Source: a virus
Taxonomy: Duplodnaviria > Caudoviricetes
Virus record (IMG/VR): IMGVR_UViG_3300002220_000769
Coordinates: 1,859 to 65,858 of that record
Reading direction: 5' to 3' (one strand)
Length of the DNA stretch: 64,000 nucleotides
Made by a program: the position numbers and the translations under genes. Positions 7,628 to 48,775 of this stretch are shown here, piece after piece. The notes under the pieces are model-generated. The model was not told the origin of the DNA. It made no database searches and saw only the letters and a program-made list of their open reading frames with translations. Position 1 is the stretch's first letter, and every line of letters begins with the position of its first letter.

Positions 7628-8083
7628 ATGAAACTGTTTGAAGTTTTGATGCACGAAAATGATGAAGAACATTCCGATGCACTAAATAAAACTGGATTTT
7701 GGGGGAAGCAAGGTGCTGGGTGTATTTTCAAAGCAGCAAGCACAGGAAGATATTTGATTGCACATCGTAGCAATTATGTCCAAGAGCCAGGAACATGGGG
7801 GACATGGGGCGGAGCAATTGATTCCAATGAAACGCCCGAACAGGCAGCGACGAGAGAAGTCCGTGAAGAAGCGGGGTATCATGGGCAACTAAAGTTGAAA
7901 CATTTATGGACGTTTAAGCATCCAAGTGGATTTCAATATCACAATTATCTTGCAATTGTTGAAGATGAATTTGTCCCAGATCTTGATTGGGAAACCCAAG
8001 GATATGCATGGGTCAAATCTGGAGAATGGCCGACTCCATTACATCCTGGACTTGAATCCCTCCTAAAAAATGCGAGATTATAG
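7628..8083 (+). CDS. Nudix hydrolase with capsid-targeting-like leader
   Basis: GGAIDSNETPEQAATREVREEAG Nudix box; starts MKLFEVLMHE. Confidence 0.9.
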   Translation: MKLFEVLMHENDEEHSDALNKTGFWGKQGAGCIFKAASTGRYLIAHRSNYVQEPGTWGTWGGAIDSNETPEQAATREVREEAGYHGQLKLKHLWTFKHPSGFQYHNYLAIVEDEFVPDLDWETQGYAWVKSGEWPTPLHPGLESLLKNARL

Positions 8084-8084
8084 A

Positions 8085-9299
8085 ATGCGATTGACAGACA
8101 TTTTCGTTGAATCAAGAAGAAATCCAGCAGTAAATCCAAAAGTCACTGCATATCAGCGGCTGGTAATGCGCAATGAGAAAGACCCAAAAAATACCTTTGT
8201 TAGTATGACTTCGGTTGACAAACTTGGGATCAACCCACGATCCGAGTATAATACTCCAATCGGAGTATATTCCTACCCAGCACAATTTGTTTTGGATACA
8301 GCAAAAATTTCAATGCGTGATCTACCTTTTGCTGGCGAAAGTCCATATGTTAATATATTCACCGCTTCTGGAAACATTTTAGTATTAACAGATATGACTG
8401 AAATTGATTACAATAGTTACTGCGAAAAAATAAGAAAGATTTTGGTGAGTGAATATGTTGCCAATAACTTCTCAGAAACAGCAGAAGAATCTGCGCGAGC
8501 AGCGAATATACAAATGAACAAAATAATGTCTGATGCGCCATACGAATCTAACGTAAGTCGGTTATATGGCGGAAGACTCTGGTATGTCACATATAGAGTC
8601 TCTAAAGAGATAGCCGCGTTAAGAGGCACAAAAAGTGTGCCTTCTATATGGAACAAAACTTTCAGATCAATTGGAATTCATGGTTGTGTGGATTATGGTG
8701 CAGGAATAATACATGAAAATGAGCCGACACAAGCCGTGTTTTTTTCAACTGAGGGAATTCGCGATGTTGAGAGAGTGTTAAACAAATGGGACGAACTCAG
8801 CCAGATCGAATCAATTGATAGAAGAATAAATTCAACTATAACCAGTAGTATTATCGCTTATCTGTCGTCAAATCCTACCTCAATAACACAGTTCATCAAG
8901 GAATATATCAACAGATTTTCACTGAACTTCGCAAAAGACTCTATCATCCAAAAAGAAATAATAAAGAAAATACATGAAAGAATTTCTAAATTAAACTTAG
9001 AATGGGAGTGGTCTGCAGAACATATGTTGGTCGATTATTATATGCACCAGACAAATGAGCAGAAAATTTGGGATATCGTGACGAGAGTGAAATCGCTCAC
9101 AAATGCGCAAAAATACGAAGCAATTATAGAATGGATGATGTCTGGCGTACAACCAAAAACTGGATACATAATCAATCAGTTCAACAGTTCAGACTTCATT
9201 GCCTACTTGAAAAATTTGGCAGAAAAAAATCCTGCAGACAAAAAGACTTGGTACAAAATAAACAAGATTCTTGGGTCGAGTGAACCCACGTTACAATGA
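8085..9299 (+). CDS. hypothetical protein with capsid-targeting-like leader
   Basis: starts MRLTDIFVES; 404 aa. Confidence 0.7.
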   Translation: MRLTDIFVESRRNPAVNPKVTAYQRLVMRNEKDPKNTFVSMTSVDKLGINPRSEYNTPIGVYSYPAQFVLDTAKISMRDLPFAGESPYVNIFTASGNILVLTDMTEIDYNSYCEKIRKILVSEYVANNFSETAEESARAANIQMNKIMSDAPYESNVSRLYGGRLWYVTYRVSKEIAALRGTKSVPSIWNKTFRSIGIHGCVDYGAGIIHENEPTQAVFFSTEGIRDVERVLNKWDELSQIESIDRRINSTITSSIIAYLSSNPTSITQFIKEYINRFSLNFAKDSIIQKEIIKKIHERISKLNLEWEWSAEHMLVDYYMHQTNEQKIWDIVTRVKSLTNAQKYEAIIEWMMSGVQPKTGYIINQFNSSDFIAYLKNLAEKNPADKKTWYKINKILGSSEPTLQ

Positions 9300-9315
9300 G
9301 ACTGGCAATTAAAAG

Positions 9316-9343
9316 CAAAAAGCCGGGATATCCCGGCTTTTTG
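9316..9343. terminator. bidirectional terminator
   Basis: perfect palindrome CAAAAAGCCGGGATATCCCGGCTTTTTG between convergent genes. Confidence 0.85.
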
Positions 9344-9556: not shown

Positions 9557-10006
9557 CTACTTCCAGTTAGGATTTGCTTCTTGATGTGTGCCAACATGAA
9601 GAAACTTGAGAATAGATTTTCCAGTTTTTTCGTCTCGTTCTATCCTAAATAATGTTATTATTTTTTTGCCAACCAAATGAGCACTGAACGCTCCGACGAA
9701 CACCGGATCTCTTTTAATAGGGTGAACATTTAAATCTGGCGGATATGTATCAATGGCAGGTTGTTGTGGAGCAGAAAGGATGAATTCCTCTAAACGAGAC
9801 AACGCATGCACGACCTTTGGATTGTTGGCATGTTTCTTCAGTCCTTTCTTAAACGCATTTGAATATTCAACTCTCCAGCTTTCTGTTTGCAGTGGGTTGC
9901 CATCTAATGCAGATTCAACCAGCGTGAAGGTGAATAACTCTTTTTCTGAGTATTCTTCGAGGATATACGAATAATCTGGTTCTGGTCTAAATTCTTCAAA
10001 TCTCAT
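9557..10006 (-). CDS. RelE/YafQ-like ribosome-dependent RNase fold protein
   Basis: WRVEYSNAFKKGLKK..HPIK..SAHL..LFRI..LHVGTHQE; acidic leader with ILEE and LVES. Confidence 0.7.
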   Translation of the reverse strand: MRFEEFRPEPDYSYILEEYSEKELFTFTLVESALDGNPLQTESWRVEYSNAFKKGLKKHANNPKVVHALSRLEEFILSAPQQPAIDTYPPDLNVHPIKRDPVFVGAFSAHLVGKKIITLFRIERDEKTGKSILKFLHVGTHQEANPNWK

Positions 10007-10015
10007 TTATTTTTC

Positions 10016-11899
10016 TCACTTTTTTGGCAATCTCTTAACTAGTACAACTCGGTGATGCTCAGTCACTGGTTTTAATTCCAACCTCCCACTATACATATTC
10101 AATGCCCATGCATGATCTTGTTCAGCGTTCAGATTGGAAGTCCAATAGAATTCAGTTCTCAAGTTTTGATTCTTTTTGGTTTGGGAATATATTCCCTTTA
10201 ACTCTGATACGGTAGGCAATGACCAGACGGCATCAGTCAAACTCTCGGCATATTTCCAGTCTTCTGTTGAACGAGTTGGTTCATCAACAACCAAGTAGTA
10301 TTTTCCAATATCAACCCTATTTATATCGTAGTCCTTTGACTTTAAATAGTTCTTTAAAACAGTTGTCGGAATAGCACCACTGTTATACAAAGAAAAGACT
10401 TTTATAGTATCATCCTGCACGTTTCTTGCCAACAATTTGTATAATTTCTTTGCGTATTCTTCACGATATTTTTCTGGATCACATGCTATATCAAGTGCAA
10501 CTGCAAATCTATACACTGTGTTGATTATTTCTTCTGCGGATTGGTTGTTTAGCCAATCATTGCCTGGACCACGGAATTCAACGCGGTTGTATTCTATGTT
10601 TACAGAGAAATGCTTTTCAGTCAGAATAAATTCAAGATTCTTTTTTGTATTATCAAAAATTCCTTGTTTTATATCAGAAAAAACTTTTGATATTTGGTTC
10701 GGAGAAATCGTTTTAACTTGCCCCTCCAATTTACTAAACACACCCTTTGTGTAAGTATTGTTTATTCTTTTGAATTTTTCCAATACTAATCTGTCTCCCA
10801 TGAAAAGGATGAGTTTAATTACGTCAAGATTTTCCATTGAATAATTTGGGACAGATATACTCATATGAAGTCCAGTTCTTTTATCTGTTCTGTAATCATT
10901 ATCTTGTGCATGTTCATAGAACTTCAAGAAGTCCTCAATTGATTGTTCTAAAAATGGTGGAGGAGTTGGACTTATTATTTCAACACCTTGATAACCATCG
11001 ATAAGTGATAAAGAAACGTCTGATTCAACCCTATACCAATTTCCTTGTGGTACACCATGATATGAAGAAGAACCTTTTGCCTCTTTTCCAAATATGCCAC
11101 CAACTTCGTCTGCCATTAACTGATAAAAAATATCTTCTGATTCAAGGTCTTTATACCGTGTCCATCTTAAATCTGGATATTTTTCTAGCATGTCACTCAA
11201 TTTTTTAATCCCGAGTTCTTCTTCTAAAAAATCAGATTGAAAATCATCGTAGTTATCATCTCTATAACTATCTTGATATGCATCTTTGGCATCATTGGGA
11301 AAACTGCTATATTCTTCTCCCTTTTCTAACAAATATTCACAGTACAATCTTGTTATATAATCTATGTCTGATTCTAATTCTTGGTATTTCTTGGCATATT
11401 TCTTATCTTGTAATCTACCAGTGCCTGCATCTACTATTTTTAATATAGTTTCAGTGCTATAGTAATTGTTTGGTATAAGTTTACTTGTAAGAGCGAATTC
11501 TATTATTTCAGACTGTGAGTGCTCTTCATTAACTAGTTTTTCAATGAATTCTAATTGTTTTTCATTGGTCCATTCTTCCCACATCTTTTTGTCAAACCAT
11601 TCTTTATAACCATCTATTATTTCTGCAATGATTTCATCAACGGTTTCAGAGTCGTTATAATCGCGATCATCATAAAAATCTTGTATATCAGATATATATC
11701 GTATCCTTCCGTCATAACTCATATCTGGAATTTGATCGCCATAATCGTAGTAATCGTCAACAGATTTTTCTGGAACATAAACTTCAAATTCAAAGCCAAC
11801 TCTTGCACCAGTTTGTGCTGCCATCTTTTTTAAATTTGTTGGACTCATTGACACTTCAAACAAGTCGTCTGAATTGCGTGATACATCGGATATTTTCAT
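10016..11899 (-). CDS. putative amidoligase (COOH-NH2 ligase type 2) fused to a C-terminal DUF1566/Lcl-like domain
   Basis: VGFEFE; ESDVSL; VEIISP; RTGLHMSIS; VEFRGPG; C-terminal LPTVSEL..YWTS..AWALNMYSG..VVLVK. Confidence 0.75.
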   Translation of the reverse strand: MKISDVSRNSDDLFEVSMSPTNLKKMAAQTGARVGFEFEVYVPEKSVDDYYDYGDQIPDMSYDGRIRYISDIQDFYDDRDYNDSETVDEIIAEIIDGYKEWFDKKMWEEWTNEKQLEFIEKLVNEEHSQSEIIEFALTSKLIPNNYYSTETILKIVDAGTGRLQDKKYAKKYQELESDIDYITRLYCEYLLEKGEEYSSFPNDAKDAYQDSYRDDNYDDFQSDFLEEELGIKKLSDMLEKYPDLRWTRYKDLESEDIFYQLMADEVGGIFGKEAKGSSSYHGVPQGNWYRVESDVSLSLIDGYQGVEIISPTPPPFLEQSIEDFLKFYEHAQDNDYRTDKRTGLHMSISVPNYSMENLDVIKLILFMGDRLVLEKFKRINNTYTKGVFSKLEGQVKTISPNQISKVFSDIKQGIFDNTKKNLEFILTEKHFSVNIEYNRVEFRGPGNDWLNNQSAEEIINTVYRFAVALDIACDPEKYREEYAKKLYKLLARNVQDDTIKVFSLYNSGAIPTTVLKNYLKSKDYDINRVDIGKYYLVVDEPTRSTEDWKYAESLTDAVWSLPTVSELKGIYSQTKKNQNLRTEFYWTSNLNAEQDHAWALNMYSGRLELKPVTEHHRVVLVKRLPKK

Positions 11900-11919: not shown

Positions 11920-13686
11920 TTACTTATCCCTGTCGTAGATTTCATTAGACAATTGTATAATTGTCATCCGTTGTCTTGCAGTTAAGTGTTCGTCCAACCA
12001 ATCATCTATCAAATCAGCAAAGTTAGTTCTTGCAACTTCTACATTCGGTATTGGTCTTTTAACCATGTCTTTTTGTTTTTTGAGAACATTTTTATACGAA
12101 ACGATTGAATTTGGTTCCATCGTGTCTTTGTTTTTGTTGAAAAACTCGACCATGGCTTCAAATGCCGCGAAATTATACGTCATCGCTTCTTTGAATCCAC
12201 TTGAATAATTTGGATCTTGCGTCAATCCCCTGATTTCTCTAGCCAAATCTACCATATATTTCAATGCATTTTTATCTTTGTTTGTAGCATACCCAACGAA
12301 TGCATCAATCATTGTCATTGTTATCTTTGATGATAGCAATTTCGTCAATTTTGTTGCATACTCTTTTTTATATAGTTCTGGTCGGGAAGCAATATACATT
12401 GCATATGCATAACGCAAAACTGTGTCTTGAAGCATCTGTATGTTTGCAGAATCAAAGTATCCTTCGTTGCCTGCTGCACGCAATTCAAAATATGATTGTT
12501 TTGTATTAATTGCAAAGTATTTCCCAGCACCACTGTCCGCTATATATTTTGTTACACTCTGTGTTAAACCAGACTTGATTTTTCCAAAAAGTATCTTGAC
12601 TAAATTTGGAGTAATTTCAGTTGCCTGTTTTTTTAACCACCCATAAGAACTTGACGTATAACTGTTTAGTTCACGTCCAAATTGTTCTAAGATATACTGG
12701 TCGCCCAAGAATAGCACCAATTTCATATAATCAACATTCTCCATATTTGGAATAGAAACTGAAATATGAAATCCAGTAGTTTCATTTGAATACGCATCTT
12801 CTGATCTTGCCCATGCAAAAAATTCTTTCATTGCCGCTATTCCATCTGCAAGTGGCATTGGTGGAGAAACAATTTCCACTGGAACTTCTGCGTCAAAATG
12901 GTTTGATACAGAAATACTTGAATCCGGCTCAATATACCAACTATCAATTTGTTTCCTTTGCACTTTATAATCCGAAGATATAACACTGAATCCCAATTCA
13001 TCTCTCATTTTGTCGGCAATATTATCCGCGACATGATCCACATATTCTCCAGATTTTATGGAGTGAAATGGCCACTCAAGACCATAAGTTTCATAAAATT
13101 CTTTTAGATCATAGATGCTTTCTTCTATGACGAATTCGTGCCACAGTTCTTCTTCATCCCAATATTGATTGATGAAATCTGTAGAATTTATATAATTTTC
13201 AGTTTCTTCATCGTATTCTTCGCGAAATGGTCGTAAATAATCTTCGTATTCATCGGTTTTATCGTTAATATGATCATTTGCAGTGTCTTCGTCTATTCCA
13301 TCACGAACCATTTGCTTAAATATTACACTGTGATAATCTGTTTCATCCCAATTGTAATCCCGATCACTCCGATATTCATCGGCATACTCATATCGGATTT
13401 CTTGTTCTTTTTTTGCAGAGAATTTTTCCCAGAGGTTTTCGGTGTCTTTTATTGCACGTACAAATGCATAACTATCATCTGCGTCTTCTGCCCACCCTTC
13501 CAGAAAATTAATTCCGTAAATTTTTTCGTTTCGTGAATAGTCAGGTTCTCGCATATCTTCTTCATCGGCGGGGAATATCATTTCCGCTTCAAACCCAAAC
13601 AAAAAGTCTGTTGATTCTGCCGAATTTAAAAATTTATTAAAAACGCTGGAAGTCATCTTGACTTCATATAATTCTTTTGCTTTCAT
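11920..13686 (-). CDS. putative amidoligase
   Basis: FGFEAE; EPDSSI; VEIVSPP; TTGFHISVS; FELRAAG. Confidence 0.75.
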   Translation of the reverse strand: MKAKELYEVKMTSSVFNKFLNSAESTDFLFGFEAEMIFPADEEDMREPDYSRNEKIYGINFLEGWAEDADDSYAFVRAIKDTENLWEKFSAKKEQEIRYEYADEYRSDRDYNWDETDYHSVIFKQMVRDGIDEDTANDHINDKTDEYEDYLRPFREEYDEETENYINSTDFINQYWDEEELWHEFVIEESIYDLKEFYETYGLEWPFHSIKSGEYVDHVADNIADKMRDELGFSVISSDYKVQRKQIDSWYIEPDSSISVSNHFDAEVPVEIVSPPMPLADGIAAMKEFFAWARSEDAYSNETTGFHISVSIPNMENVDYMKLVLFLGDQYILEQFGRELNSYTSSSYGWLKKQATEITPNLVKILFGKIKSGLTQSVTKYIADSGAGKYFAINTKQSYFELRAAGNEGYFDSANIQMLQDTVLRYAYAMYIASRPELYKKEYATKLTKLLSSKITMTMIDAFVGYATNKDKNALKYMVDLAREIRGLTQDPNYSSGFKEAMTYNFAAFEAMVEFFNKNKDTMEPNSIVSYKNVLKKQKDMVKRPIPNVEVARTNFADLIDDWLDEHLTARQRMTIIQLSNEIYDRDK

Positions 13687-14345
13687 CTACCTCTATTCCT
13701 GTACAATTCTGCAACATCTTTTGTATAACCAATGTCAATAACAACTGGCACGCCTTGGTAGAACCCCCAATTTTTGTGGTTATTGAAATCTACAAGTTCA
13801 ACGTCAAACTGCTCTAGTTCTGCCAACTTTTCTGCATAATCTATGAAAATTTCTTCTTTTTCTGTATCAGCAAGATTTTTTAAAATTTGCTGTTGAATTG
13901 AATAGCCATTTCTTTTTCTGTATGAACTTGCATATTGCACCAATTCATGTAGGTAGTTGCACCCAAAATAATTGCACAATTCTTTTTCATTTTTTGGAAC
14001 TCTTGCCAATTCTGTTTGAATCCAAACTGGCAAATCACCGGCTTTGTCATAATCTATCAATGGAATTGCGATTCCCAATTGTTTAACATAACCATCATTT
14101 AAAATTGATATTTCTGCAAGATTTTGCTGTTCTCCACGACTATTTTTTGCCACTTTAAAAACTGTTGGTCTTCCGTTTTCTTCTATTTTCACTGCAACTC
14201 TACTTGATCCGGCTCCCAATCTGGTGGATTTGCTAAGTGCATAAGCTAACCGACTTTTAAATGTCGTTCCTTTTTGCTTTTTCATTTGTTCCACATCCCA
14301 ATCGGGTGGCAACGGTGCTTCAGATACAAAATCTACGATTTTCAT
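13683..14345 (-). CDS. protein kinase-like
   Basis: LGAGSSR glycine loop; VFKVAK; D..N..NWG; VVIDIG; leader MKIVDFVSEA. Confidence 0.75.
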   Translation of the reverse strand: MKIVDFVSEAPLPPDWDVEQMKKQKGTTFKSRLAYALSKSTRLGAGSSRVAVKIEENGRPTVFKVAKNSRGEQQNLAEISILNDGYVKQLGIAIPLIDYDKAGDLPVWIQTELARVPKNEKELCNYFGCNYLHELVQYASSYRKRNGYSIQQQILKNLADTEKEEIFIDYAEKLAELEQFDVELVDFNNHKNWGFYQGVPVVIDIGYTKDVAELYRNRGR

Positions 14346-14429: not shown

Positions 14430-14921
14430 TCACGTTGACCTCATTTTTTGTATAATCTTCTTCGGTTCCAGTGGACCAGACATTCTTTCTCCACCATCAA
14501 AGTAGCGAATTTCTACAGGAAGTGAATCCCACCCTAATTCTGCTGCAGCCATAATTCTGTGATTCCCTTCATTCACCCATGCAGAACCATCCCACGCGAC
14601 CATCACAAATGGTGCATATTCTTTTCCATTTACTAATGGCAATTTTCCAGTATCTTGCATTATCTTTTTTATTGCTGCCAAATCTGCATGACGAACGTTT
14701 TCTTGTTCACCCCGCATTCCTTTTAGTCTTTTTAAGCTACTGACGGGAACTTTTGGCAGACCGCCCACAAAATTCCCGGTCCATTTGCCCATATACGGAA
14801 CTCCAAATTCATTTTTTCCTTTTTTAATGGCATAGGAAACAGCATCTTCCAACCATTCTTCATTTGGAATATCACTTGACAGTGTCACCGAAGATTCAAC
14901 TACAATTTCTTTAATTTTCAT
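14430..14921 (-). CDS. ParB/Srx-like domain protein
   Basis: PFVMV..VNEGNHRIMAAAELGWDSLPV; leader MKIKEIVVES. Confidence 0.7.
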   Translation of the reverse strand: MKIKEIVVESSVTLSSDIPNEEWLEDAVSYAIKKGKNEFGVPYMGKWTGNFVGGLPKVPVSSLKRLKGMRGEQENVRHADLAAIKKIMQDTGKLPLVNGKEYAPFVMVAWDGSAWVNEGNHRIMAAAELGWDSLPVEIRYFDGGERMSGPLEPKKIIQKMRST

Positions 14922-15856
14922 TTTTTCACCACTGTTGGCATGCTTCCAACTGATTTACCCCAATCTTCTACAAATTGTTGAGGAAGTTCTGTTGAACCGT
15001 AATGAACTATTATTGAACTGTTATCTGGAAGAATTTCTAAAATATTAATTATTTTGTTTGCACCACGAAATGTCACTGGTTGCTCTGTTCGTAATGTATG
15101 ACTAAATTTACCACTATCTTTGTATGCAGATTCACGGTAGTATCGGGTCAACTTATCAACCCAATGCTGCAAATTCTGTTCTGACTCTGATGTAGTGAGA
15201 ATCTTTTCTGGTTTGTTATCAACATGTTTAAATAGTTCGTCTTTTAAGTCTTTTGTTCCACCCCATGATGATAGTCTCCCTCTTCCTGCGACTGTATATG
15301 CAATATATCGATCAAGCAATGCAATGCAAGTATTTTCAAGCAGTGAATCTGGCATAGGAACTTTTGGTGAATTTTCTGTCGATCTTTCATGAAAAGAAGT
15401 TTTGAATGCATCAAAAAACTTATTTCGTATTTTCTGATCATCATACAATCCATGTGCGTATATATGTACAGCCTCCGCATATATCCCACCAAACAATTCA
15501 CGAACAGCAGATTGATATGCATTTTTTAGATTCCACATTATTGAATCTTCGTCTGCGAATGAACTTGATTCTGCTATCTGAGCGACAACTATTAAACTGT
15601 TTCCATCAAATTTTCTGGTTGCATTGCGAGAAGAACTCTTTGCAGTCAATAAGTTGCTTGTCCAATATGAACCTCCGATACTTGCTCTTGAAAAACTGTC
15701 AATGTTAGCATCAGGGTCATCTGCCCACACTTTTTCTTTAGAAGAAGGCAACATACCATTCTTCAATATTGAGCGAAGAAATTTTGTGCTGGTCCCATGA
15801 TACATTATTATCGGTTTTCGGAACTTTGCTTCTTGAATTATTTCATTTACTTTCAT
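14918..15856 (-). CDS. ADP-ribosyltransferase-fold (KptA-like) protein
   Basis: MYHGTSTKFLRSILKNGML; YWTS; leader MKVNEIIQEA. Confidence 0.6.
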   Translation of the reverse strand: MKVNEIIQEAKFRKPIIMYHGTSTKFLRSILKNGMLPSSKEKVWADDPDANIDSFSRASIGGSYWTSNLLTAKSSSRNATRKFDGNSLIVVAQIAESSSFADEDSIMWNLKNAYQSAVRELFGGIYAEAVHIYAHGLYDDQKIRNKFFDAFKTSFHERSTENSPKVPMPDSLLENTCIALLDRYIAYTVAGRGRLSSWGGTKDLKDELFKHVDNKPEKILTTSESEQNLQHWVDKLTRYYRESAYKDSGKFSHTLRTEQPVTFRGANKIINILEILPDNSSIIVHYGSTELPQQFVEDWGKSVGSMPTVVKK

Positions 15857-36186: not shown

Positions 36187-36263
36187 GAAAAAACAGTGTT
36201 GACACGGCAGGGGATTTGTATGAAAATCCTCCTACCGTAACAAACCAACAAAGGAGCAAGATC

Positions 36264-36455: not shown

Positions 36456-36519
36456 ATGGTTGACACATGGGGGGATTTGTATGAAAATCCTCCTACCGTA
36501 ACCCAACTGGAGCAAGATC

Positions 36520-37769: not shown

Positions 37770-38380
37770 TTGCAATTTATTCCACTATAATCCCCGAGCA
37801 ATCGGGGATTTTTTTTGCATGTTGATATGACAATAGCATAATGATGCTGGCATTGTTCCCCTATGCTATCCGCATGAATAGATTGTGTTTATAGCGATGA
37901 CTATAAGCAATGTTTATGATAAGCACAGTTTATATGGTCGCGATCTTCACCATGTTGCACCGTGTCCAATCATTTTTTCTTATGACGAAGGGTGTTGACA
38001 CTACTGGCAAGGTGTGCATCATTGGTATGGTATAGATAACTTTAATGGTGCACGGTGTTGACACTGTAGGCAAGGTGTGCATCATGACGAGCAGTATAAG
38101 CATATGCTTATGATCATAACAGGCATGCACAGTGTGAGCACCGTGTCAAATAATATTTTTAAATAGTATGGCCACGGTTGGGCATAAAATACTTTTATTA
38201 TTAAAAATTTTTATAGGGGGGTCGCGTGTACTATAAAATATTTTTATAATCAGAAACTGTGCTATAATTTTTTCTTATAATGTTACATTCTTTTCTACTC
38301 TCTTGTAAATTTCTGGTACCATACAAAAACAATGGGGGTTTACCAACAAAAGGTTCATTAACGGTGTCACACACCCTTTC

Positions 38381-38532
38381 AAAACTTTTCCATACGGTTG
38401 TAAATAATTTTTCGATTTTTTGGCGCAAAAATTTTTTTCTACCCTACATAGAAAATTCTTATAATAGAAAACTTTTCCATACGGTTGTAAATAATTTTTC
38501 GATTTTTTCCGGACCAAATTTTTTTCTACCCT
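38381..38532 (+). repeat. two 65-bp direct repeats (87-bp period)
   Basis: AAAACTTTTCCATACGGTTGTAAATAATTTTTCGATTTTTT..AAATTTTTTTCTACCCT at 38381 and 38468. Confidence 0.9.
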
Positions 38533-38586
38533 CTATATAAGAATCCCCAATCACAATAAATAGTCTTAACCGTTGAGAAAAGAACA

Positions 38587-39670: not shown

Positions 39671-40348
39671 ATGCGAATAAATGAAATAGAAATTCCCGAT
39701 ACCATAGACGGAAAACCGACCCGCAATAATTTGGGTCAATTGATACATCCAACTGTGGAAGGTATGAAAAACTTTTGGCGTTGGTTTGGTGATTCGAAAG
39801 TGGTGGATTCAAAGGGCAGACCATTGGTAATGTACCATGGAACTTACCCAACAAAAATGCAATCTGGAAAAATGTTAGGCGATTTTGATGCATTCAATAG
39901 AAAAGCATCTACAGAAATTGTCAAAAGAATGCCGTCGTATGATCAAGTCGGGCTTTGGTTTTCAAGTAAACCGGGTAATCCTGGCGCAGAAGGTTACGGC
40001 AATTTCATATACCCAGTTTACTTAAGAGCAATTGATTACAAACGAACTACGTTCGATGCAATGGTGAAGACTATGTATCGTCTTGCTGATGGAGAGTCTT
40101 CTGGAAAAGATTTTTCTTCTGCAATGGCAAAAGATGTTGATCCGTATCGTGAATTTTTGAGAGACAATGGATACGATTCAGTCCTGATTTTTCACGATTC
40201 TTCCCGAGAAAATTATAGCACAGAATTTAAAGACCAAACGGTTTGGATCGTACTTGAACCAGAACAAGTGAAATCCGCCGTTGGCAATAACGGAAACTTT
40301 TCACCAAATAGTCAGAAAATAACCGAAAAATCTGCGAAGATTACGTGA
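39671..40348 (+). CDS. ART-PolyVal-like protein (paralog)
   Basis: WFGDSKVVDSKGRPLVMYHGT; GLWFSS; QVKSAVGNNGNF. Confidence 0.75.
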   Translation: MRINEIEIPDTIDGKPTRNNLGQLIHPTVEGMKNFWRWFGDSKVVDSKGRPLVMYHGTYPTKMQSGKMLGDFDAFNRKASTEIVKRMPSYDQVGLWFSSKPGNPGAEGYGNFIYPVYLRAIDYKRTTFDAMVKTMYRLADGESSGKDFSSAMAKDVDPYREFLRDNGYDSVLIFHDSSRENYSTEFKDQTVWIVLEPEQVKSAVGNNGNFSPNSQKITEKSAKIT

Positions 40349-40497: not shown

Positions 40498-41151
40498 ATG
40501 AAAATAACAGAAATAACCAGACCATCTTCACAAAAAGAAGCAGACCGGATTCTACGACACGCTGGATATCACAGACTTGGATATGGAAGTTTTGGTGCTG
40601 TATATCAAAAGACTCCAAATCAAGTAGTCAAATTATTCACCAGTGATGACGTTGCATATCTTGCGTTTATTAAGATGGCAAAACAATCAGGAAATCCACA
40701 TTTCCCTCGTTTCTTTGGAAATCCATTGAGAATAACAGACAGTTATTACGCCGTGAAGCAAGAAATGCTTGAAGAAAATGATTTCATGACGGTTGGGTTT
40801 ATATCCTCATACATTACTGCATTGGCAGATGAATATGAGCCTAATCGCGAATTAAAGCAAAAAATAGAAGCATTTGATGAAGAATACCCAAGGTTTAAAG
40901 AAGCATGCGAATTAATTGCTCGAATGGTAAAACAAGACCAAAACATCGTCATTGATATACATAATGCCAATGTGATGTTCCGTGGAGTCACCCTAGTCTT
41001 CACCGACCCTGTTGCCACAAAATCTGCACTCACTATAGAAAAGATAAAACAACTACCAGACATACAGAACTGGTCCCAATCTGTTCGTGACAAGGGTGGT
41101 GAGCGGATAGAAGTAACAGACAAGAATGACATAATTAATCGGCATTTTTGA
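40498..41151 (+). CDS. protein kinase-like
   Basis: LGYGSFGAVY; VVKL; DIHNANVMFR; FTDP. Confidence 0.85.
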   Translation: MKITEITRPSSQKEADRILRHAGYHRLGYGSFGAVYQKTPNQVVKLFTSDDVAYLAFIKMAKQSGNPHFPRFFGNPLRITDSYYAVKQEMLEENDFMTVGFISSYITALADEYEPNRELKQKIEAFDEEYPRFKEACELIARMVKQDQNIVIDIHNANVMFRGVTLVFTDPVATKSALTIEKIKQLPDIQNWSQSVRDKGGERIEVTDKNDIINRHF

Positions 41152-41155: not shown

Positions 41156-42115
41156 ATGAAAATAAAAGAAATAGTAATAGAAGATGTTTTCCATGGTAGT
41201 CCACATCGTTTTGATCCAGATCCAGAAAATCCATATGGAAAATTTTCTGTTGATAGAATCGGGACTGGGGAGGGAAACCAAGCGTATGGGTATGGGTTGT
41301 ATTTTGCATCAAGCAAAGAAGTTGCTCTATGGTATAAAGAAAAACTGTCTGACGCTCATTGGAAGTATGGAACCCGAAAAATAAGAACAGTCAGATCACT
41401 GAATGATTATGTAGCGCATTTCATGCGAAGTGGTGATAACAGTAACGAGCCATCTGCTGGATTTATACTCAACTTCGTCAAAAATACAAGAAAAGTAACA
41501 AACTCCCACAAAAATTCAGCATTGCGCTTTATTGATTCCACAATCGACAAAATAGAAGCCCGAAAAGAGTCTTATACCGTGAGTGGGGCATTGCGCGATA
41601 AGTTCATAGCACAAGACGATCAACTTATTTCTCATTACAAAACATTCAGAGATTTTGTTGCAAAAGAAATTGATCCAAAGAAGTTCAAATGGACTGGTGG
41701 ATATCTTTACCACGTCGATATTCCGGAAGATAACGAATACTTGCGTTGGGAAGTAAAGTTGATGAATAATCCACAACACATCCAAGACTTGCTTGCAAAC
41801 AACGAACACTTACTGAGATACGTGGAAGAACTTGAAAACAAAAGAAAAGAAATGAATGCTCGTTATCCAGATAGATTGGCACATCCCGTAATTGGAAAAA
41901 TTGCAAACACAGAAAAAACTGTGCATGATTTACACGGTAAAGACATCTACGAAACACTTTCAAAAAATTTGGGTGGTGACAAAAAAGCGAGCGATTATCT
42001 AAGATCAATCGGAGTAATGGGAATAAAATACATGGGCGACAAGTCATACAACTACGTTGTGTTCGATGATTCCAGAATAAGCATAAAAAAGGTAGAAGAG
42101 AATGAAACTGAATGA
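41156..42115 (+). CDS. polyvalent-protein-associated ART-like domain protein
   Basis: FHGSPH..IGTGEGNQAYGYGLYFA; YVVFDD. Confidence 0.65.
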   Translation: MKIKEIVIEDVFHGSPHRFDPDPENPYGKFSVDRIGTGEGNQAYGYGLYFASSKEVALWYKEKLSDAHWKYGTRKIRTVRSLNDYVAHFMRSGDNSNEPSAGFILNFVKNTRKVTNSHKNSALRFIDSTIDKIEARKESYTVSGALRDKFIAQDDQLISHYKTFRDFVAKEIDPKKFKWTGGYLYHVDIPEDNEYLRWEVKLMNNPQHIQDLLANNEHLLRYVEELENKRKEMNARYPDRLAHPVIGKIANTEKTVHDLHGKDIYETLSKNLGGDKKASDYLRSIGVMGIKYMGDKSYNYVVFDDSRISIKKVEENETE

Positions 42116-43235
42116 CCTTTACCCACTCACAGAAGCAACAAGCACCAATGTCAAGATTCTCCGAGAATTGACCAGAATGATTTTGAATAAAGTTCCAAGA
42201 TCACTGGAAAGAATTTCTCCAAATGAAGAACCTTATTCATTCTACGGTTCAGAGTTGGATTTGTCAAAACTGAAAGAAGACCATGTTGATCTTCTTGCCT
42301 TTTTCTTGCATTTCGAAAAAACAAAAATTATTTTCAATACATATTCAACATACAAAGATTATTTGGGAGTTTATGACTCAGACAAGAACGAGATGGAAAT
42401 TGCTGTAGACAACATTTATCGGAATAATGGATTTTATGACAACTTTGTGTTGGACAAAAAATCTACAAATGAGGGTGGAATTGTTGTCACCATCTATCAT
42501 GAACTGCGACATATAATGCAGCATAAAGACTACTCTAAATATTTTTCATCTGAGTCTGCACGACAAAGACCATATTCAGAACGAGAAATTGAAATAGACG
42601 CAGTATGGAACTCTTTGGTCGCTGCTTGGCATCCAGAGTTTGATGTCTCAAGCGGGGATAGGAAAAAATCACCGATGCCTTTTGTTAACAAAGTAATGGA
42701 TTCACTATCAAAGATAAAGTCATTATCACCAAAGCAACAAGAACATTATCGCAAGAAAACAATAAAGTTCTATTTCAACCCGCATCCAGACAAACCAGTG
42801 TCTAACTCAAAAGATGAAAGAATAGCGAGTTTGATTTCAACCAAAATAAAGAACGATACGATGAATGGAGTGAATAGCAGTGGTAGCATGGGGTTTGATA
42901 TGCGGACAGTGATGCCAGATTATGACGTAGAAAAATATGGAAGATTTCTATTCCCCGTAGACAAGACCAGAGCAATATTCAAAATGATGGATGGCGAAAA
43001 AACTGAGAACGCACTGATGAATAACATGCTGTATCTTGTTCCAGCATTCTACATCGATGATAAAACTGCAAAGTTGTGGAAATCCCATGTGAATAACATG
43101 CATGGATATAGTATCGCAGATGTTATAAGAAATTTGCATGTTGGACTTCCTAAAGATTTTTTTGATTTGTCTGCAATAAAAAACTTTTTAAGAAAAAAAT
43201 ACGGAGTTCCTGTTTACGGAAAAACCAAAAAATGA
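42102..43235 (+). CDS. zincin-like metallopeptidase
   Basis: YHELRHIMQH (HExxH) with downstream EIDA. Confidence 0.7.
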   Translation: MKLNDLYPLTEATSTNVKILRELTRMILNKVPRSLERISPNEEPYSFYGSELDLSKLKEDHVDLLAFFLHFEKTKIIFNTYSTYKDYLGVYDSDKNEMEIAVDNIYRNNGFYDNFVLDKKSTNEGGIVVTIYHELRHIMQHKDYSKYFSSESARQRPYSEREIEIDAVWNSLVAAWHPEFDVSSGDRKKSPMPFVNKVMDSLSKIKSLSPKQQEHYRKKTIKFYFNPHPDKPVSNSKDERIASLISTKIKNDTMNGVNSSGSMGFDMRTVMPDYDVEKYGRFLFPVDKTRAIFKMMDGEKTENALMNNMLYLVPAFYIDDKTAKLWKSHVNNMHGYSIADVIRNLHVGLPKDFFDLSAIKNFLRKKYGVPVYGKTKK

Positions 43236-45076
43236 AAATAAAAGAAATAATACTCAACTTATTTGAAGCACGGATGAGTCCTGCTGTGTTTGCCAAATTT
43301 GTCAGATCACCATCAGCAAATTCCACTTTCATTGGGGTTGAATTTGAACTATACTTTAAAGGCATACTACAAAACAACCAAACAAAACACTGGGACGACC
43401 GAGTGGTAGATCAGTTGGCAGTCACATTCACAAAAGAGACTGGAATACCTGCCAAACGAGGCGCAAGCAACGAACAGATCGGGGTAGGAAGTACACACTG
43501 GATATTCACCGAAGACGGCAGTGTTACCAGAAAGGGAAATCCAGATGACATGGGCATGGAAATAAAAACTCCAGCAGTGCCACTACCGCAATTCATGAAG
43601 CAATTTAATACATTTATCCAGTGGTTGCGGCACCACAACGCTTACACAAATGAAAGAACTGGTCTGCATTTGAACATGTCTGTTCAAGGAAAAGACATTG
43701 ACTACTTGAAATTGGTGTTGTTTTCTGGCTCAGACAAAGTGAGTGCCGACTTTGAAAGAACAGCGAGCGAGTTTGCAGAATCAAATTTAAAAAAATTAGA
43801 CTTGGAATATGTAAGCAAGCCGTCCATTTATAACAAAATAAAACAGAATCTACTTCAAGCAGCAGCAGCAGAAATCGAAAACAAAAGCCAAGACAAATAC
43901 TTCCAAGTAAATACACACTCAGATTACGTCGAGTTTCGTGCACCTGGTAATGATTGGTTAGGAAGATTTTACCCACTTGTCGAAAATACGATTTACCGCT
44001 ATGTGTACGCCTTATCAATTGCAACCGACCCCGAATCAGAAAAACGAGAATATGCCAAGAAATTGATGAAATTATTTGGAGGAGCAGAAGAATATTCAAA
44101 TGAATTGATGGTTGCGATTAGTGACAAACCAATACTGATTACCAAAATAAAAAACCCAAGCGAAAAAGTCCAACTTGCTGCTGTTCAACAAAATGGACAT
44201 GCCATTAAATATATTGAAAACCCAACGGAGCAAGTCCAAATTGCTGCTGTCACACATTATGGATATGCAATTGAATATATTGAAAACCCAAGCGAACAAG
44301 TCCAACTTGCTGCTGTTCAACAAAATGGACATGCCATTGACTATATTGAAAACCCAACGGAGCAAGTCCAACTTGCTGCTATTAACCAAAATGGTTATGC
44401 CATTAAATATATTGAAAACCCAACGGAGCAAGTCCAACTTGCTGCTGTCACGCAAAATGGCGAGGTAATTCAGCACATAAAAACACCAAGTGAACAAGTC
44501 CAACTTGCTGCTGTTCAAAAATATGCAAATGCAGTCAAATATATTGAAAACCCAAGTGAACAAGTCCAACTTGCTGCTGTTCAAAAATATGGTTATGCAA
44601 TTAAATATATTAAAAACCCAAGCGAACAAGTCCAACTTGCTGCTGTCGAGCAAGATGGCGATGCAATTGAATATATTGAAACACCAAGTGAACAAGTCCA
44701 ACTTGCTGCTGTTCAAAAATATGCAAATGCAGTCAAATATATTGAAAACCCAAGTGAACAAGTCCAACTTGCCGCTGTTCAACAAAATGGACATGCCATT
44801 AGATATATTAAAAACCCAAGCGAACAAGTCCAACTTGCTGCTGTTCAACAAAATGTAAATGCAATCCTACACATTGAAACCCCATCCGAGAAAGTCCAAC
44901 TTGCTGCTGTCACGCAAAATGGCGAGGTAATTCAGCACATAAAAACACCAAGTGAACAAGTCCAACTTGCCGCTGTTAAGCAAAATCCAGGAGTATATAT
45001 ATTGATGAACCGCAGAAAAATGGATATAGCCTCATCAGTGCATGAATACATGAGAAATATTGAGAGTCAGAGATGA
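43232..45076 (+). CDS. putative amidoligase with 13 C-terminal 22-aa repeats
   Basis: IGVEFE; TEDGSV; MEIKTP; RTGLHLNMS; VEFRAPG; PSEQVQLAAVxxxGxAIxYIEN x13. Confidence 0.8.
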   Translation: MKIKEIILNLFEARMSPAVFAKFVRSPSANSTFIGVEFELYFKGILQNNQTKHWDDRVVDQLAVTFTKETGIPAKRGASNEQIGVGSTHWIFTEDGSVTRKGNPDDMGMEIKTPAVPLPQFMKQFNTFIQWLRHHNAYTNERTGLHLNMSVQGKDIDYLKLVLFSGSDKVSADFERTASEFAESNLKKLDLEYVSKPSIYNKIKQNLLQAAAAEIENKSQDKYFQVNTHSDYVEFRAPGNDWLGRFYPLVENTIYRYVYALSIATDPESEKREYAKKLMKLFGGAEEYSNELMVAISDKPILITKIKNPSEKVQLAAVQQNGHAIKYIENPTEQVQIAAVTHYGYAIEYIENPSEQVQLAAVQQNGHAIDYIENPTEQVQLAAINQNGYAIKYIENPTEQVQLAAVTQNGEVIQHIKTPSEQVQLAAVQKYANAVKYIENPSEQVQLAAVQKYGYAIKYIKNPSEQVQLAAVEQDGDAIEYIETPSEQVQLAAVQKYANAVKYIENPSEQVQLAAVQQNGHAIRYIKNPSEQVQLAAVQQNVNAILHIETPSEKVQLAAVTQNGEVIQHIKTPSEQVQLAAVKQNPGVYILMNRRKMDIASSVHEYMRNIESQR

Positions 45077-45669
45077 AAATAACAGAAATAACTAGACCTC
45101 GCTCAATTGCAGATGCAGATCGTATTCTGAAGCAACATGGATACAAAAGACTTGGAGTTGGAAGTTTTGGCGTAGCATATCAAAAACGACCAGATCAAGT
45201 GTTGAAGCTTTTTTCCAGCGCAGACACTGCGTATCTAAAGTTTATACACGTTTCAAAAACTGCAAATAATCCACATTTCCCAAAAATATTTGGCAATCCT
45301 ATCAGGATAAACGAAACTTATTATGGAATCAAAACAGAAATGCTGGAGACAATAGATTTGACAGTTGCATACAATGTTTCGTCTTCCATCCGAAAATATA
45401 TCTTCAACATGCAGCGTGGTAAACAACCAACTCCAGAAACAGATCTATACAAAGAAATTGCCCCGTATGTTAAAAACTATGAGGAATTTGACCGTGCGTG
45501 CAAAATATTGGTAGAGTTGATCAACTCCGACAAAGATATCACACTTGATGTTGCTACAAGAAATATCATGTTTAGAAACGGAACTGTTGTATTCTCTGAT
45601 CCAGTGGCGTCACAAACTGCAATGTCGGCAGATGAACTTCACTTGCCAGAATCAAAACAAGAGCAGTGA
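45073..45669 (+). CDS. protein kinase-like (paralog of 40498)
   Basis: LGVGSFGVAY; DVATRNIMFR; FSDP. Confidence 0.8.
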   Translation: MKITEITRPRSIADADRILKQHGYKRLGVGSFGVAYQKRPDQVLKLFSSADTAYLKFIHVSKTANNPHFPKIFGNPIRINETYYGIKTEMLETIDLTVAYNVSSSIRKYIFNMQRGKQPTPETDLYKEIAPYVKNYEEFDRACKILVELINSDKDITLDVATRNIMFRNGTVVFSDPVASQTAMSADELHLPESKQEQ

Positions 45670-45746: not shown

Positions 45747-47093
45747 GTGAAACTAACAGAAGTTGCAGCGGAGTATTCTAATCCGTATTACCCAGAAGAA
45801 GACATTGGTTTATTAACTCTTGGCGAATTCTTATATTCGAGGAATCCACTGGGAAAATCACACACATCTGATGTTTATGATACGACCATTGAGTCACTGA
45901 ACCGATCTTGGCCTACTATGACAAAAGATATATCTTATGTATCAAGGTCTTATGACAAATTGTATCTCACTCAATATGAGAACGGAAGCACAATTATAAG
46001 CACTGAATCTTCTGGAAGAAGCGGATCAAAACTGGATGAACACACAGTTCTTGCTGTTATTATAGATGACACAGCATACTATACAGTCCATTTTTCTAAG
46101 TCATTGCTTCCATTACATTTCACCGATTACAATGGAAATAAACTTGACATTGTTCCGACGAAGTTCGTAAAAGTGAAATATATCACAGAGTATCTTGACC
46201 GAGTGAAATTGGATTCATCAAAAAACATTAAAAACTATCCTTACATAATTCGAAGAATGATGATTGCAGATGAGGCACTTACGATAAGAACTGACTCAAA
46301 AGATTATCCAAAAGATTCTGGACATGCAATTGTTATAACGAATGAACGAAAACAGGTTGTTGCAACAGCAACGGATGAATGGGGAGCAACGTTGCTCCGA
46401 GTAGCAAAAGAATATCGTGGAAAAAATTTGGGAAGAATACTTGGTGACATTTGGTATTCAAAGAATCCTGGTTATACCTCTGGTGGATTTTCCCCACAAG
46501 GGAAACATAATGCAAAAAAGATTTGGTCTGAGCGAGTTAGGACAATGTTGCAAAATGGATGGTATTCTGACTTGGTTAGGAGCAAAAGAATTTCTCCAGA
46601 AAAAGTAAAAACAATTTTGTCTTCACTGTTGCCTAGAGAAAGAACTCCAGTTGCACAACCAAAATCTGCACAAGAACCACTGTTGTATACAGATGGAAGT
46701 TCAGTGTTTGTTTTATATGACAAAAAGTTCTATGAAGATCAAGATGACAAATACATTTATGCTTTTGGTTTAATTCGTGACTTTGGTGGAAAAGTATTCG
46801 CTTATACCTTGGATTACGATTCTGCATACCGCAGATTGGCGACGTATATCTTAATTGAAACTGTTCAACTGCACAGTGATAAATTATATGTTGCAGATAA
46901 ACCAAGTGATCATATAGATTTGTCTGGAATATCAGATGTTGTTGTGGATAACGAGGGGTATGCGACTCTGGAATCACCAAAAGTCAATGTGATGGCACAT
47001 GCTTCTCAAGAAAAAAGATACAGAATTCCTCGTGATAAGCATGGAGAAATTCTACAGGTATTGCTTGAACAAGCACATTCGAAATGGATGTGA
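45747..47093 (+). CDS. hypothetical protein with a GNAT-like segment
   Basis: LRVAKEYRGKNLGRIL; GGFSPQG; leader MKLTEV. Confidence 0.6.
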   Translation: MKLTEVAAEYSNPYYPEEDIGLLTLGEFLYSRNPLGKSHTSDVYDTTIESLNRSWPTMTKDISYVSRSYDKLYLTQYENGSTIISTESSGRSGSKLDEHTVLAVIIDDTAYYTVHFSKSLLPLHFTDYNGNKLDIVPTKFVKVKYITEYLDRVKLDSSKNIKNYPYIIRRMMIADEALTIRTDSKDYPKDSGHAIVITNERKQVVATATDEWGATLLRVAKEYRGKNLGRILGDIWYSKNPGYTSGGFSPQGKHNAKKIWSERVRTMLQNGWYSDLVRSKRISPEKVKTILSSLLPRERTPVAQPKSAQEPLLYTDGSSVFVLYDKKFYEDQDDKYIYAFGLIRDFGGKVFAYTLDYDSAYRRLATYILIETVQLHSDKLYVADKPSDHIDLSGISDVVVDNEGYATLESPKVNVMAHASQEKRYRIPRDKHGEILQVLLEQAHSKWM

Positions 47094-47153
47094 GTCATTA
47101 TGAAGAACGCATGCGTTCTTCATAAATACATTGATTATGACGAATATGAAAAA

Positions 47154-48485
47154 ATGAAATTATATGAAATGTTTGGCCATGTAATAACAGAAGATTACAA
47201 AACTTCGGCTGCAAAGCAGTTGCAATCAAACCAAGAACTACAGCAAGCGTGTGACTTGATCAATGCTGGCGGACAGTTGAGTTGGACACTGACTCCAGCA
47301 AAATTGAATCAAAAACTTGGAAGCGAGGGCGCAATATTTGGTCTGTTTGACGACGATGAAATCATTGGCACAATAGGTTTAAAACATTCCAACATACAAT
47401 CACACAGTGTAGCCGAAGTTGGTTACTTGTATGTAATTCCTGAGCACAGAAACTTTCAAAATTTAATGAAATTGTATAATATAGCGTCAGAATATGCACC
47501 ATCATACGATTTTGTTTATGCAACTACAATCAAGACAAACCAGACCATCAATACTATATTGCAAAGAAATTCAAGAGTTAAGTTCGCATTTTCTGCAAGG
47601 TCTCCATTCAGTAGCAACATTCTAAACTACTGGATTTCAAAGAACTCGAGATTGGATTCAGATGAGGCAATTGAAATACTTAAAAGCGAATTTGGTGGAA
47701 GTAGGTTGACGGAATCATCTGTGAATGAATTTAAAATAGTTCTATCTCGCGTCGAATTGGCACCAAAAAATTTTCAAACATCAATTCAACGATTAATAAG
47801 TTCCTCCAAATTTATAGAAACTGGAGATAATGCTGGACCAAATCAAGTATTAGTTATATTTGGTAGGCAAAGTAGTCTGCCAACAAAAAAGAATACTATA
47901 TACGTCGGCAACAATTATTATGACAAAGAACAACAGTATAATATTCTCAAGAATGTCGTTCCCCTGCCATTCACAACTACCAATCCAAACGAACTCAAAG
48001 GAGAATTTGTTGCCAAACAAAAAACTGGACACAAGCAAAAGGGGCAGTTGATTAATCAACTGCCAGATAATCCAGAAGATTATATTTTTCAGAAAAAAAT
48101 AGAGTTAAAATCAGAATACAGAGTGGTAGTTTTCTACATGAATGGCAAGTATCATGTGTCTGGAGTGTACAAAAAGACCGGGCCAAACCTCTCGTTTATT
48201 AGCATAACCTCTGGTCAAATACATGATAAATGCATAGATATAGCAATAGCTGCCTGTGAAAATCTTGGGTATGGAACAAGTGGGGTTGATTTGGCAATAA
48301 CTACATCCGAACTTGGCGAAGGTGTTGGCGGCATAGCATCATCACTTGGAAAACTTGCAGGAAAATTTCAAGGAAAATCTATAAATGGCCAAGTCGTTTT
48401 TTTGGAAGCAAATACACTTCCAAGCATGGCAAATCCAATGTTATTGAACGATTTTCTTAAACACATTAAATTAAAAATGGAATGA
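47154..48485 (+). CDS. GNAT plus ATP-grasp (RimK-like) fusion
   Basis: AEVGYLYVIPEHR; FVAK..G; YIFQKKI..EYRV; GVDL; FLEANTLP; leader MKLYEM..ITED. Confidence 0.7.
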   Translation: MKLYEMFGHVITEDYKTSAAKQLQSNQELQQACDLINAGGQLSWTLTPAKLNQKLGSEGAIFGLFDDDEIIGTIGLKHSNIQSHSVAEVGYLYVIPEHRNFQNLMKLYNIASEYAPSYDFVYATTIKTNQTINTILQRNSRVKFAFSARSPFSSNILNYWISKNSRLDSDEAIEILKSEFGGSRLTESSVNEFKIVLSRVELAPKNFQTSIQRLISSSKFIETGDNAGPNQVLVIFGRQSSLPTKKNTIYVGNNYYDKEQQYNILKNVVPLPFTTTNPNELKGEFVAKQKTGHKQKGQLINQLPDNPEDYIFQKKIELKSEYRVVVFYMNGKYHVSGVYKKTGPNLSFISITSGQIHDKCIDIAIAACENLGYGTSGVDLAITTSELGEGVGGIASSLGKLAGKFQGKSINGQVVFLEANTLPSMANPMLLNDFLKHIKLKME

Positions 48486-48490
48486 TTAAA

Positions 48491-48775
48491 ATGAGACTAA
48501 AAGACATAGCAGAAGTTAAGACAAATTTTCCAGATGCAGATTTTTGGATTCAGAGGAAAGGATCAAAGGAAAACGTTGGAAAACCAACTAAAACATTTTC
48601 ACCAGAAAACATTGGTATCAAAGTTGTGAAAACAGATGTAGTTGACCCAAACTATCTAAAGTACGTTTTTGAATACCTATTCACATCCGGTGCATTTAAA
48701 CCCCTTGCAAAAGGCACACTGAATCTTCAGCATCTGCCGTTAGATGCAATCCGAAATGCCAATATTGGCAACTAA
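48491..48775 (+). CDS. stand-alone type I restriction HsdS TRD-like domain
   Basis: RLKDIAEV..DPNYLKYVF..F..LAKGT..HL pattern. Confidence 0.55.
   Translation: MRLKDIAEVKTNFPDADFWIQRKGSKENVGKPTKTFSPENIGIKVVKTDVVDPNYLKYVFEYLFTSGAFKPLAKGTLNLQHLPLDAIRNANIGN

Follow-up and report, generated by a model that had tools for sequence, protein, structure and literature searches.

Genes sharing an N-terminal leader

The window analyzed here comprises 64,000 of the 65,858 bases of IMG/VR record IMGVR_UViG_3300002220_000769, a contig with an estimated CheckV completeness of about 18%. Over 41 kb of this window, about 20 genes start with the same type of short leader. In its commonest form, the leader has hydrophobic residues at positions 3 and 6 and a hydrophobic-x-Glu tripeptide at positions 7–9, which corresponds to the layout of the phage T4 capsid-targeting sequence shifted by one residue. 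The family-B DNA polymerase encoded at positions 58797–61703 has 42–44% identity with the polymerases of Sinorhizobium phage Phosso, Agrobacterium phage Atu_ph07, and the PBECO4 group. This level of identity indicates that the contig is a fragment of a jumbo phage of the T4 superfamily, with a predicted genome of roughly 350 kb.

From the leaders listed in an initial annotation of this DNA, we wrote the strict pattern M-[KR]-[ILVFAT]-x-[ED]-[ILVFM] and scanned it over the six-frame translation of the window. Among the 22 matches, 20 correspond to the starts of open frames of 94–627 codons; the two others lie off gene starts, in a 20-codon frame at position 12785 of the minus strand and at an internal Met at position 62411. 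Together with the gene at 45747, which begins with GTG and not ATG, these frames account for all 21 N-termini that had been listed. In 200 block shuffles of the window, the pattern occurred on average 1.97 times (standard deviation 1.5, maximum 6) and only 0.005 times on frames of at least 90 codons, and 2 of the 301 internal Met residues of the window open reading frames (ORFs) are followed by the motif. The shared leader is therefore real and far beyond chance. The closing hydrophobic-x-Glu is found at residues 8–15 in 16 of the 21 leaders; the remainder are referred to below as half-motif leaders. True paralogs excepted, the likeness between members ends with the leader, after 8–15 residues. 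As the initial annotation had stated, the leader precedes unrelated catalytic domains: at least eight unrelated fold families carry it. Conversely, the ~65 other genes of the window lack it, among them genes for late structural proteins, lysis, and replication. Its reported absence from the early region also holds, as the six-frame scan gave no strict-pattern match between 23477 and 38587; in this window, the motif is not equally frequent in early or replication genes.

The first two leader genes lie on the plus strand. Behind a terminator-like hairpin, the gene at 7628–8083 encodes a Nudix hydrolase of 151 residues (Pfam NUDIX, E 3e-15) with a leader ending at Glu10. It is followed by a gene (8085–9299) for a leader-bearing protein of 404 residues with no assignable function and neither a Pfam nor a PHROG match. 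Six genes of the minus strand come next. At 9557–10006, a half-motif leader and an acidic extension of ~30–40 residues precede a putative RelE/YafQ-like fold, suggested by an ESM Atlas structure match of residues 30–147 to YafQ/RelE clusters that we take as a lead only. The protein encoded at 10016–11899 (627 residues) combines a 15-residue leader, an amidoligase-like domain, and an Lcl_C-like tail scoring below the Pfam cut-off; it is homologous to its amidoligase paralogs and to gp196 of Atu_ph07, a virion protein. The neighboring amidoligase at 11920–13686 (588 residues, Pfam Amidoligase_2, E 1e-9) has an 8-residue leader and aligns with gp196 starting at residue 1. A protein of 220 residues and unknown function (13683–14345, phrog_4301) has a leader ending at Glu9, and the leader protein of 163 residues encoded at 14430–14921 is possibly ParB-like, according to weak PHROG matches (E 0.003–0.009).

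The first gene of this minus-strand operon, at 14918–15856, encodes a leader followed by a putative enzyme with an ADP-ribosyltransferase (ART) fold and a helical insert (312 residues). The AlphaFold model obtained from this protein and its 23 homologs is confident, with a predicted local distance difference test score (pLDDT) of 85.6. The closest VIA neighbors of the model belong to the ART superfamily: KptA (Z 8.3), TreX (7.0), PARP16 (6.9), and pertussis toxin S1 (6.7). A Foldseek search with the same model returned no row at E ≤ 0.001, and the ART fold was seen only by the exhaustive aligner, with a modest Z (8.3). Residues 1–10 form a low-confidence helix (pLDDT 52) and the ART-fold alignments all begin at residues 7–17, beyond the leader. 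According to the model, the leader would thus lie outside the fold. The weak top Foldseek row was a pre-ejectosome chain of cyanophage A4, 9k3a_B (VIA Z 5.0, 148 residues), which hints that ART-like modules may also be present in a structurally solved ejection complex.

Three further leader genes precede the early-type region. The gene at 20027–20455 of the plus strand encodes a protein of 142 residues and unknown function (phrog_3307) with a leader ending at Glu10. Two ART-like proteins are encoded on the minus strand at 22006–22893 (295 residues) and 22890–23477 (195 residues), the latter gene being first in its operon. They share a His-Gly/x-Thr-Ser signature directly behind the leader, in the form His-x-Thr-Ser in the former and Tyr-His-Gly-Thr-Ser in the latter.

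All remaining leader genes are on the plus strand. The plus-strand operon opens with two paralogous ART-PolyVal proteins with half-motif leaders, encoded at 38587–39660 (357 residues, Pfam PF18760, E 2e-16) and 39671–40348 (225 residues, PF18760 over the full length, E 3e-15). Two other half-motif paralogs, at 40498–41151 (217 residues, phrog_15752 protein kinase, E 1e-12) and 45073–45669 (198 residues, phrog_15752 and phrog_3809), are protein-kinase-like. Between them lie a probable ART of 319 residues (41156–42115), whose ESM Atlas feature neighbors are ART-PolyVal clusters (0.88–0.90, again a lead only); a zincin-like metallopeptidase of 377 residues with an 11-residue leader (42102–43235), for which DUF6782 and DUF3920 scored below the cut-off; and a protein of 614 residues (43232–45076) with a 12-residue leader, an amidoligase-like domain, and DUF4116 repeats (E 4e-22) matching Atu_ph07 gp394. 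The GTG-initiated gene at 45747–47093 encodes a conserved leader protein of unknown function (448 residues, phrog_29287, E 8e-110), 38% identical over its full length to Atu_ph07 gp377. A GNAT acetyltransferase (Pfam Acetyltransf_1) with a 13-residue leader and a further domain (47154–48485, 443 residues) is followed by the weakest member according to comparison with its ortholog, a protein of 94 residues with a leader-like start (48491–48775). A virion structural protein encoded at 50377–50910 (phrog_12928, E 4e-31), whose N-terminus has hydrophobic and acidic residues in a T4-like spacing, is a possible 22nd member beyond the stretch given in the initial annotation.

The predicted cargo consists mostly of enzymes: six or seven have an ART fold, three are amidoligases, two are kinase-like, and Nudix, GNAT, zincin-like, and RelE-like proteins are represented once each. 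The initial annotation had counted about 21 enzymes; a catalytic domain is recognizable in some 15 or 16 of the proteins and in none of those encoded at 8085, 13683, 45747, and 48491. The RelE-like (9557), ParB-like (14430), and seventh ART (41156) assignments rest on weaker leads, and sequence searches of the PDB with these three proteins were empty.

The window contains fewer copies of ATAAATA, the core motif of T4 late promoters, than expected from composition (15 versus ~36). Five of these copies nevertheless lie 26–32 nt upstream of leader genes that head operons, bearing out the remark that several operons are preceded by this word: 26 nt from the minus-strand start at 15856, 31 nt from that at 23477, also 31 nt from 38587, and 32 nt from both 45747 and 47154. 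A sixth copy precedes the virion structural gene at 50377 by 30 nt. The spacing of ATAAATA favors the internal starts at 47154 (instead of 47100) and at 40498. Judging from these promoter sequences, the leader genes are probably expressed late from T4-late-like promoters. By contrast, the plus-strand block at 23500–38550 contains ~22 strong, near-consensus sigma-70-like promoters, all on that strand, and neither ATAAATA nor a leader match. It looks like a dense array of early-gene cassettes. Repeated GC-rich tetraloop terminators separate its small ORFs, GC content climbs to 0.42–0.48, and both strands contain long open frames. A tandem of three small ORFs lies immediately upstream of this block (24363–25899); they are paralogs whose N-terminal stretches are almost identical.

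The contig also carries seven tRNA genes, two insertion sequence (IS) elements, a lysozyme gene, and two genes for PHROG "virion structural proteins." Adjoining the island of leader genes are genes for a peptide deformylase, a ClpA-like ATPase with two AAA domains, and PhoH (53177–55878 and 48851–49597), all devoid of a leader. The GATAAATAA variant of the late-promoter-like word occurs at positions 196, 1945, 5266, and 20509 of the window, where it directly precedes a permuted tRNA-like gene, an IS607-type tnpA, a tRNA-Gly gene, and a tnpB gene, respectively.

Leader boundary and virion proteins in related phages

The leader varies in length among homologs, and its end is conserved. In 23 homologs of the 14918 protein (30–45% identity), the N-terminal extension is 4–16 residues long; it ends in Glu in 22 of them, 21 of which have Ile or Leu at P3, and directly abuts an invariant basic block. 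We compared the window with two near-complete relatives, G001 (317.7 kb, 31% GC) and G002 (347.5 kb, 54.5% GC), each of which encodes 17–23 such N-termini grouped in islands. Among their orthologs of the proteins encoded at 8085, 10016/11920/43232, 22006, 40498, and 42102, the length of the leader drifts whereas its boundary is kept. The G001 ortholog of the 8085 protein has a leader of different length that ends in Glu right before a conserved Arg-rich stretch, and that of the 22006 protein retains its leader. In two G001 orthologs of the 42102 protein, the leader has 8 residues and an identical Thr-Glu/Ala-Thr boundary. The G002 ortholog of the 40498 protein shares its starting residue and its type of leader. 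TAAATA is enriched upstream of leader ORFs both in G001 (8/19 versus 70/407) and in Atu_ph07 (8/21 versus 69/785).

Phage RaK2 (NC_019526.1, 31.7% GC) has an S77 protease gene and matches G001 in AT richness, yet is almost devoid of leaders, with a density of 1.2 per 100 kb versus 31 per 100 kb in the window. The persistence of the leader at 54.5% GC in G002 and its near-absence from this AT-rich genome argue against an effect of base or codon composition. Since RaK2 nearly lacks leaders despite its S77 protease, the leader class is clade-specific and not general to all Rak2-like phages; RaK2 may use another tag or none.

In G002 (IMGVR_UViG_3300020202_000061; L087:9665-11965), a single leader precedes a protein of 766 residues in which an ART-like module (38% identity to the 14918 protein) is fused to a C-terminal Nudix module (51% identity to the 7628 protein). 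An Ile-x-Glu is kept at the joint before the ART module, where the leader of the window protein ends. This protein is a candidate protease-cut polyprotein, and its organization suggests that the prohead protease may also separate fused modules. In other phages, the PF18760 domain of the 39671 type sits in giant polyvalent proteins, as illustrated by Dolichospermum phage Dfl-JY45, in which an ART-PolyVal domain lies within a protein of 2,387 residues.

Among cultured relatives whose virion proteome has been published, Atu_ph07 is the closest: 131 of its 714 proteins, a base rate of ~18%, were identified in particles (Attai et al. 2018; PMC6102473, Table S5). Applied to the annotated Atu_ph07 N-termini, the strict pattern derived from the window has seven matches, six of which (gp043, gp046, gp199, gp548, gp561, and gp672) are in the virion list (binomial probability ~2e-4 given the 18% base rate). 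A widened pattern, which also accepts Tyr or Trp as the third and Gln as the fifth residue, retrieves 22 annotated proteins, 21 of them in the list; it was chosen after seeing G001 and gp196 and was not tuned on the virion list, the strict pattern being the cleaner test. The virion proteins found with the widened pattern include the ART-like gp381 and the tandem paralogs gp055–gp063, and leader-bearing paralogs of this phage are not independent observations. Three homologs of window proteins are also in the list: the amidoligase gp196 (14 peptides), the ortholog of the 45747 protein gp377 (6 peptides), and gp394 with its DUF4116 repeats (18 peptides).

The gp055–gp063 genes (NC_042013.1, 43318–50592) encode ~29-kDa paralogs that all bear a leader, its third residue being Trp and its fifth Gln, and that are all in the virion list. 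The paper describing the phage is silent on their paralogy, on their shared N-terminus or any N-terminal motif, and on cleavage (PMC6102473). Likewise, our literature search found no account of the leader in Rak2-like or Atu_ph07-like phages, although one may still exist.

Genes for gp21-type proteases (Peptidase_S77) were identified in G001, G002, G004, Atu_ph07 (gp204), SCTP-2, and RAS14. A search of the contig with PF03420 (S77 protease) gave no match, which is little informative as the contig represents ~18% of the genome.

Probable capsid targeting and alternative explanations

The layout of the motif, its fixed boundary, the late-type promoters, the S77 protease of the relatives, and the virion proteome of Atu_ph07 all support the proposal of the initial annotation that the leader is a T4-like capsid-targeting sequence. 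The window would then represent a cargo island from a jumbo phage of the T4 superfamily, coding for about 20 late-expressed proteins with an amphipathic N-terminal leader of 8–15 residues, of the form Met, Lys or Arg, hydrophobic, any residue, acidic, hydrophobic, and then hydrophobic-x-Glu. During prohead assembly, this leader would dock the protein onto the scaffolding core. A gp21-type S77 prohead protease would subsequently cut after the Glu and leave the free enzyme inside the head, from which, at the next infection, it would exit together with the DNA to act on the host before phage gene expression. We infer the binding to the core, the cleavage, the ejection, and the host targets. Taken as a whole, the explanation that the leader works like the T4 sequence, with cargo loaded in the head, cleaved, and ejected, has in our estimation a probability of roughly 0.7. 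Its steps differ in strength. Because the leader predicts virion membership in the Atu_ph07 proteome, packaging of the leader-bearing proteins is quite likely. By analogy with T4, cleavage of the leader is reasonably probable, and on the same analogy we lean slightly toward injection.

Several observations weigh against this explanation. Five leaders (9557, 38587, 39671, 40498, and 45073), those of both ART-PolyVal proteins, both kinase-like proteins, and the RelE-like protein, contain only the first half of the motif and lack the closing Glu, and hydrophobic-x-Glu is a common tripeptide. The G001 ortholog of the 48491 protein aligns from residue 1 yet has no closing Glu; this N-terminus may belong to the fold and the protein could be a false member. 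In Atu_ph07, gp360 bears a leader and is not in the virion list. The particles were purified with polyethylene glycol only and the list contains a RecA-like protein, SSB, and ribonucleotide reductase (PMC6102473), so that some entries may be abundant late contaminants. Passage through the tail would require proteins of 60–70 kDa to be unfolded, as is the case for T4 Alt. Finally, no capsid, portal, scaffold, or prohead protease gene is present on the contig, which covers ~18% of the genome, and the link to a prohead protease therefore rests on the relatives.

The leader could alternatively be a virion-incorporation tag on proteins that stay uncleaved or act in or on the particle, for example as core or decoration proteins, whiskers, or DNA- or capsid-modifying enzymes. 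The Atu_ph07 proteome would fit this explanation, as it shows presence in particles and not location or processing, and gp055–gp063, tandem paralogs without an enzymatic domain, could be structural. Moreover, in T4, an Asp at position 10, the cut position, stops cleavage and not targeting (PMC9026906), and five window members are devoid of the closing Glu. However, most of the cargo belongs to families of enzymes that modify the host (ART-PolyVal, Nudix, kinase, RelE-like) and are implausible as structural parts, and a boundary that is kept while the length of the leader drifts is typical of a removed propeptide. T4 Alt, an ADP-ribosyltransferase with a gp21-cleaved propeptide, is itself ejected (PMC9026906, PMC5512222). 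We consider a tag of this kind unlikely.

Explanations unrelated to the capsid fare worse. A bias of translation initiation or of late-gene codons, or a tag for another enzyme or sorting route, would account for the Lys at the second residue, since this residue and A-rich early codons favor initiation in AT-rich genomes, and for the similar start of an unrelated gene, that of the IS607-type transposase at 1957. This is disfavored, and in our view improbable, as the motif is missing from ~65 other genes of the same window, late ones included, is kept in the GC-richer G002 and nearly absent from RaK2, and predicts virion membership in Atu_ph07. The contig also lacks a radical-SAM gene, which speaks against a tag recognized by an enzyme of that type. 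Common descent of one N-terminal domain would explain the resemblance within paralogs (38587 and 39671, 40498 and 45073, and the three amidoligases); as a general cause it is refuted, as is chance likeness, by the at least eight unrelated fold families that bear the leader, by the ~2 matches in shuffled sequences versus 22, and by the end of the likeness after 8–15 residues.

Beyond the capsid-targeting function, it is possible, at somewhat less than even odds, that the leader and the hydrophobic-x-Glu joints form a plug-and-play cargo system in the clade of T4-like jumbo phages related to Atu_ph07. Effector modules would be encoded either one by one, each behind a leader of its own as in the window, or in strings that follow one leader and are separated by the prohead protease, as in the 766-residue protein of G002. 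Polyvalent proteins and T4 internal proteins would in that case represent two ends of one delivery strategy.

If the leader is a true capsid address, the injected effectors of uncultured giant phages would be readable from sequence alone. The phage of the window would provide about 20 candidates for the earliest host-takeover or counter-defense activities, a third of them ADP-ribosyltransferases, and more than 20 "hypothetical" virion proteins of Atu_ph07 could be reinterpreted. Being short and portable, the tag could also serve to load foreign proteins into phage heads of large capacity.

Comparison with known systems

In T4, the capsid-targeting sequence is present on IPI, IPII, IPIII, and the Alt propeptide and is removed by gp21 (Mullaney and Black 1996; reviewed in PMC9026906, PMC3012670, PMC8442874). 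That of IPIII has ten residues (PMC8442874), and mutational work has assigned targeting to residues 4 and 7 and processing to residues 8 and 10 (PMC9026906). The window proteins resemble T4 internal proteins by a Met-Lys leader of ~10 residues with hydrophobic positions followed by hydrophobic-x-Glu, by its presence on mutually unrelated proteins, by late-type promoters, by their origin from a T4-superfamily phage, and by the S77 protease of the relatives. Several window proteins are predicted to be ADP-ribosyltransferases, like Alt. Unlike the approximately four T4 proteins, which are mostly small, basic, and nonenzymatic, those of the window number ~20 in 41 kb and are mostly predicted enzymes of 150–630 residues. 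Their leader is one residue shorter and varies from 8 to 15 residues, and the phage of the window is known from sequence alone. T-even phages carry diverse internal-protein ORFs in which only the capsid-targeting sequence is conserved, according to Repoila et al. (1994) as cited in PMC3012670. These polymorphic loci share with the window swappable, unrelated cargo united only by a leader and read as counter-defense. They differ in coding for small anti-restriction proteins at one locus of close T4 relatives, whereas the window contains a large enzyme arsenal in the distant jumbo clade around Atu_ph07.

In phiKZ-like giant phages such as 201phi2-1 and SPN3US, which have ejection or inner-body proteins and a gp21-related protease (PMC5694885, PMC10052503), many head-internal proteins are likewise ejected after a distant relative of gp21 has cleaved them behind a Glu. 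These phages differ from that of the window by long propeptides, a small-residue-x-Glu motif, and another lineage, and a short targeting leader common to their proteins has not been defined.

The predicted activities recall the polyvalent proteins that Iyer, Burroughs, Anand, de Souza, and Aravind (2017; PMC5512222) described in phages and conjugative elements. The repertoire of the window includes ART-PolyVal (PF18760, twice over the cut-off), Nudix, GNAT, and amidoligase domains, a zincin-like domain below the cut-off, a kinase-like domain by PHROG, and ParB-like and RelE-like candidates. Both polyvalent proteins and the window cargo are predicted to be delivered with the DNA. The initial annotation had described an unfused polyvalent arsenal. 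The overlap of repertoires and the G002 fusion of ART-like and Nudix modules support the parallel; the name itself does not apply, as polyvalent proteins are defined by at least two effector domains and only one catalytic domain is present in most of the window proteins. The only combinations in the window, at 10016, 43232, and 47154, each associate a catalytic with an accessory domain. The packaging proposed for polyvalent proteins usually involves a fusion to MuF or portal and not a T4-type leader (PMC5512222). The leader genes connect two subjects that have so far been treated separately, the capsid-targeting sequence of T4 and the polyvalent effector proteins of comparative genomics. The principle was already recognized in T4 in the 1990s; new are the scale, the clade, and a cargo rich in enzymes of polyvalent type, an extension in scope and not in kind.

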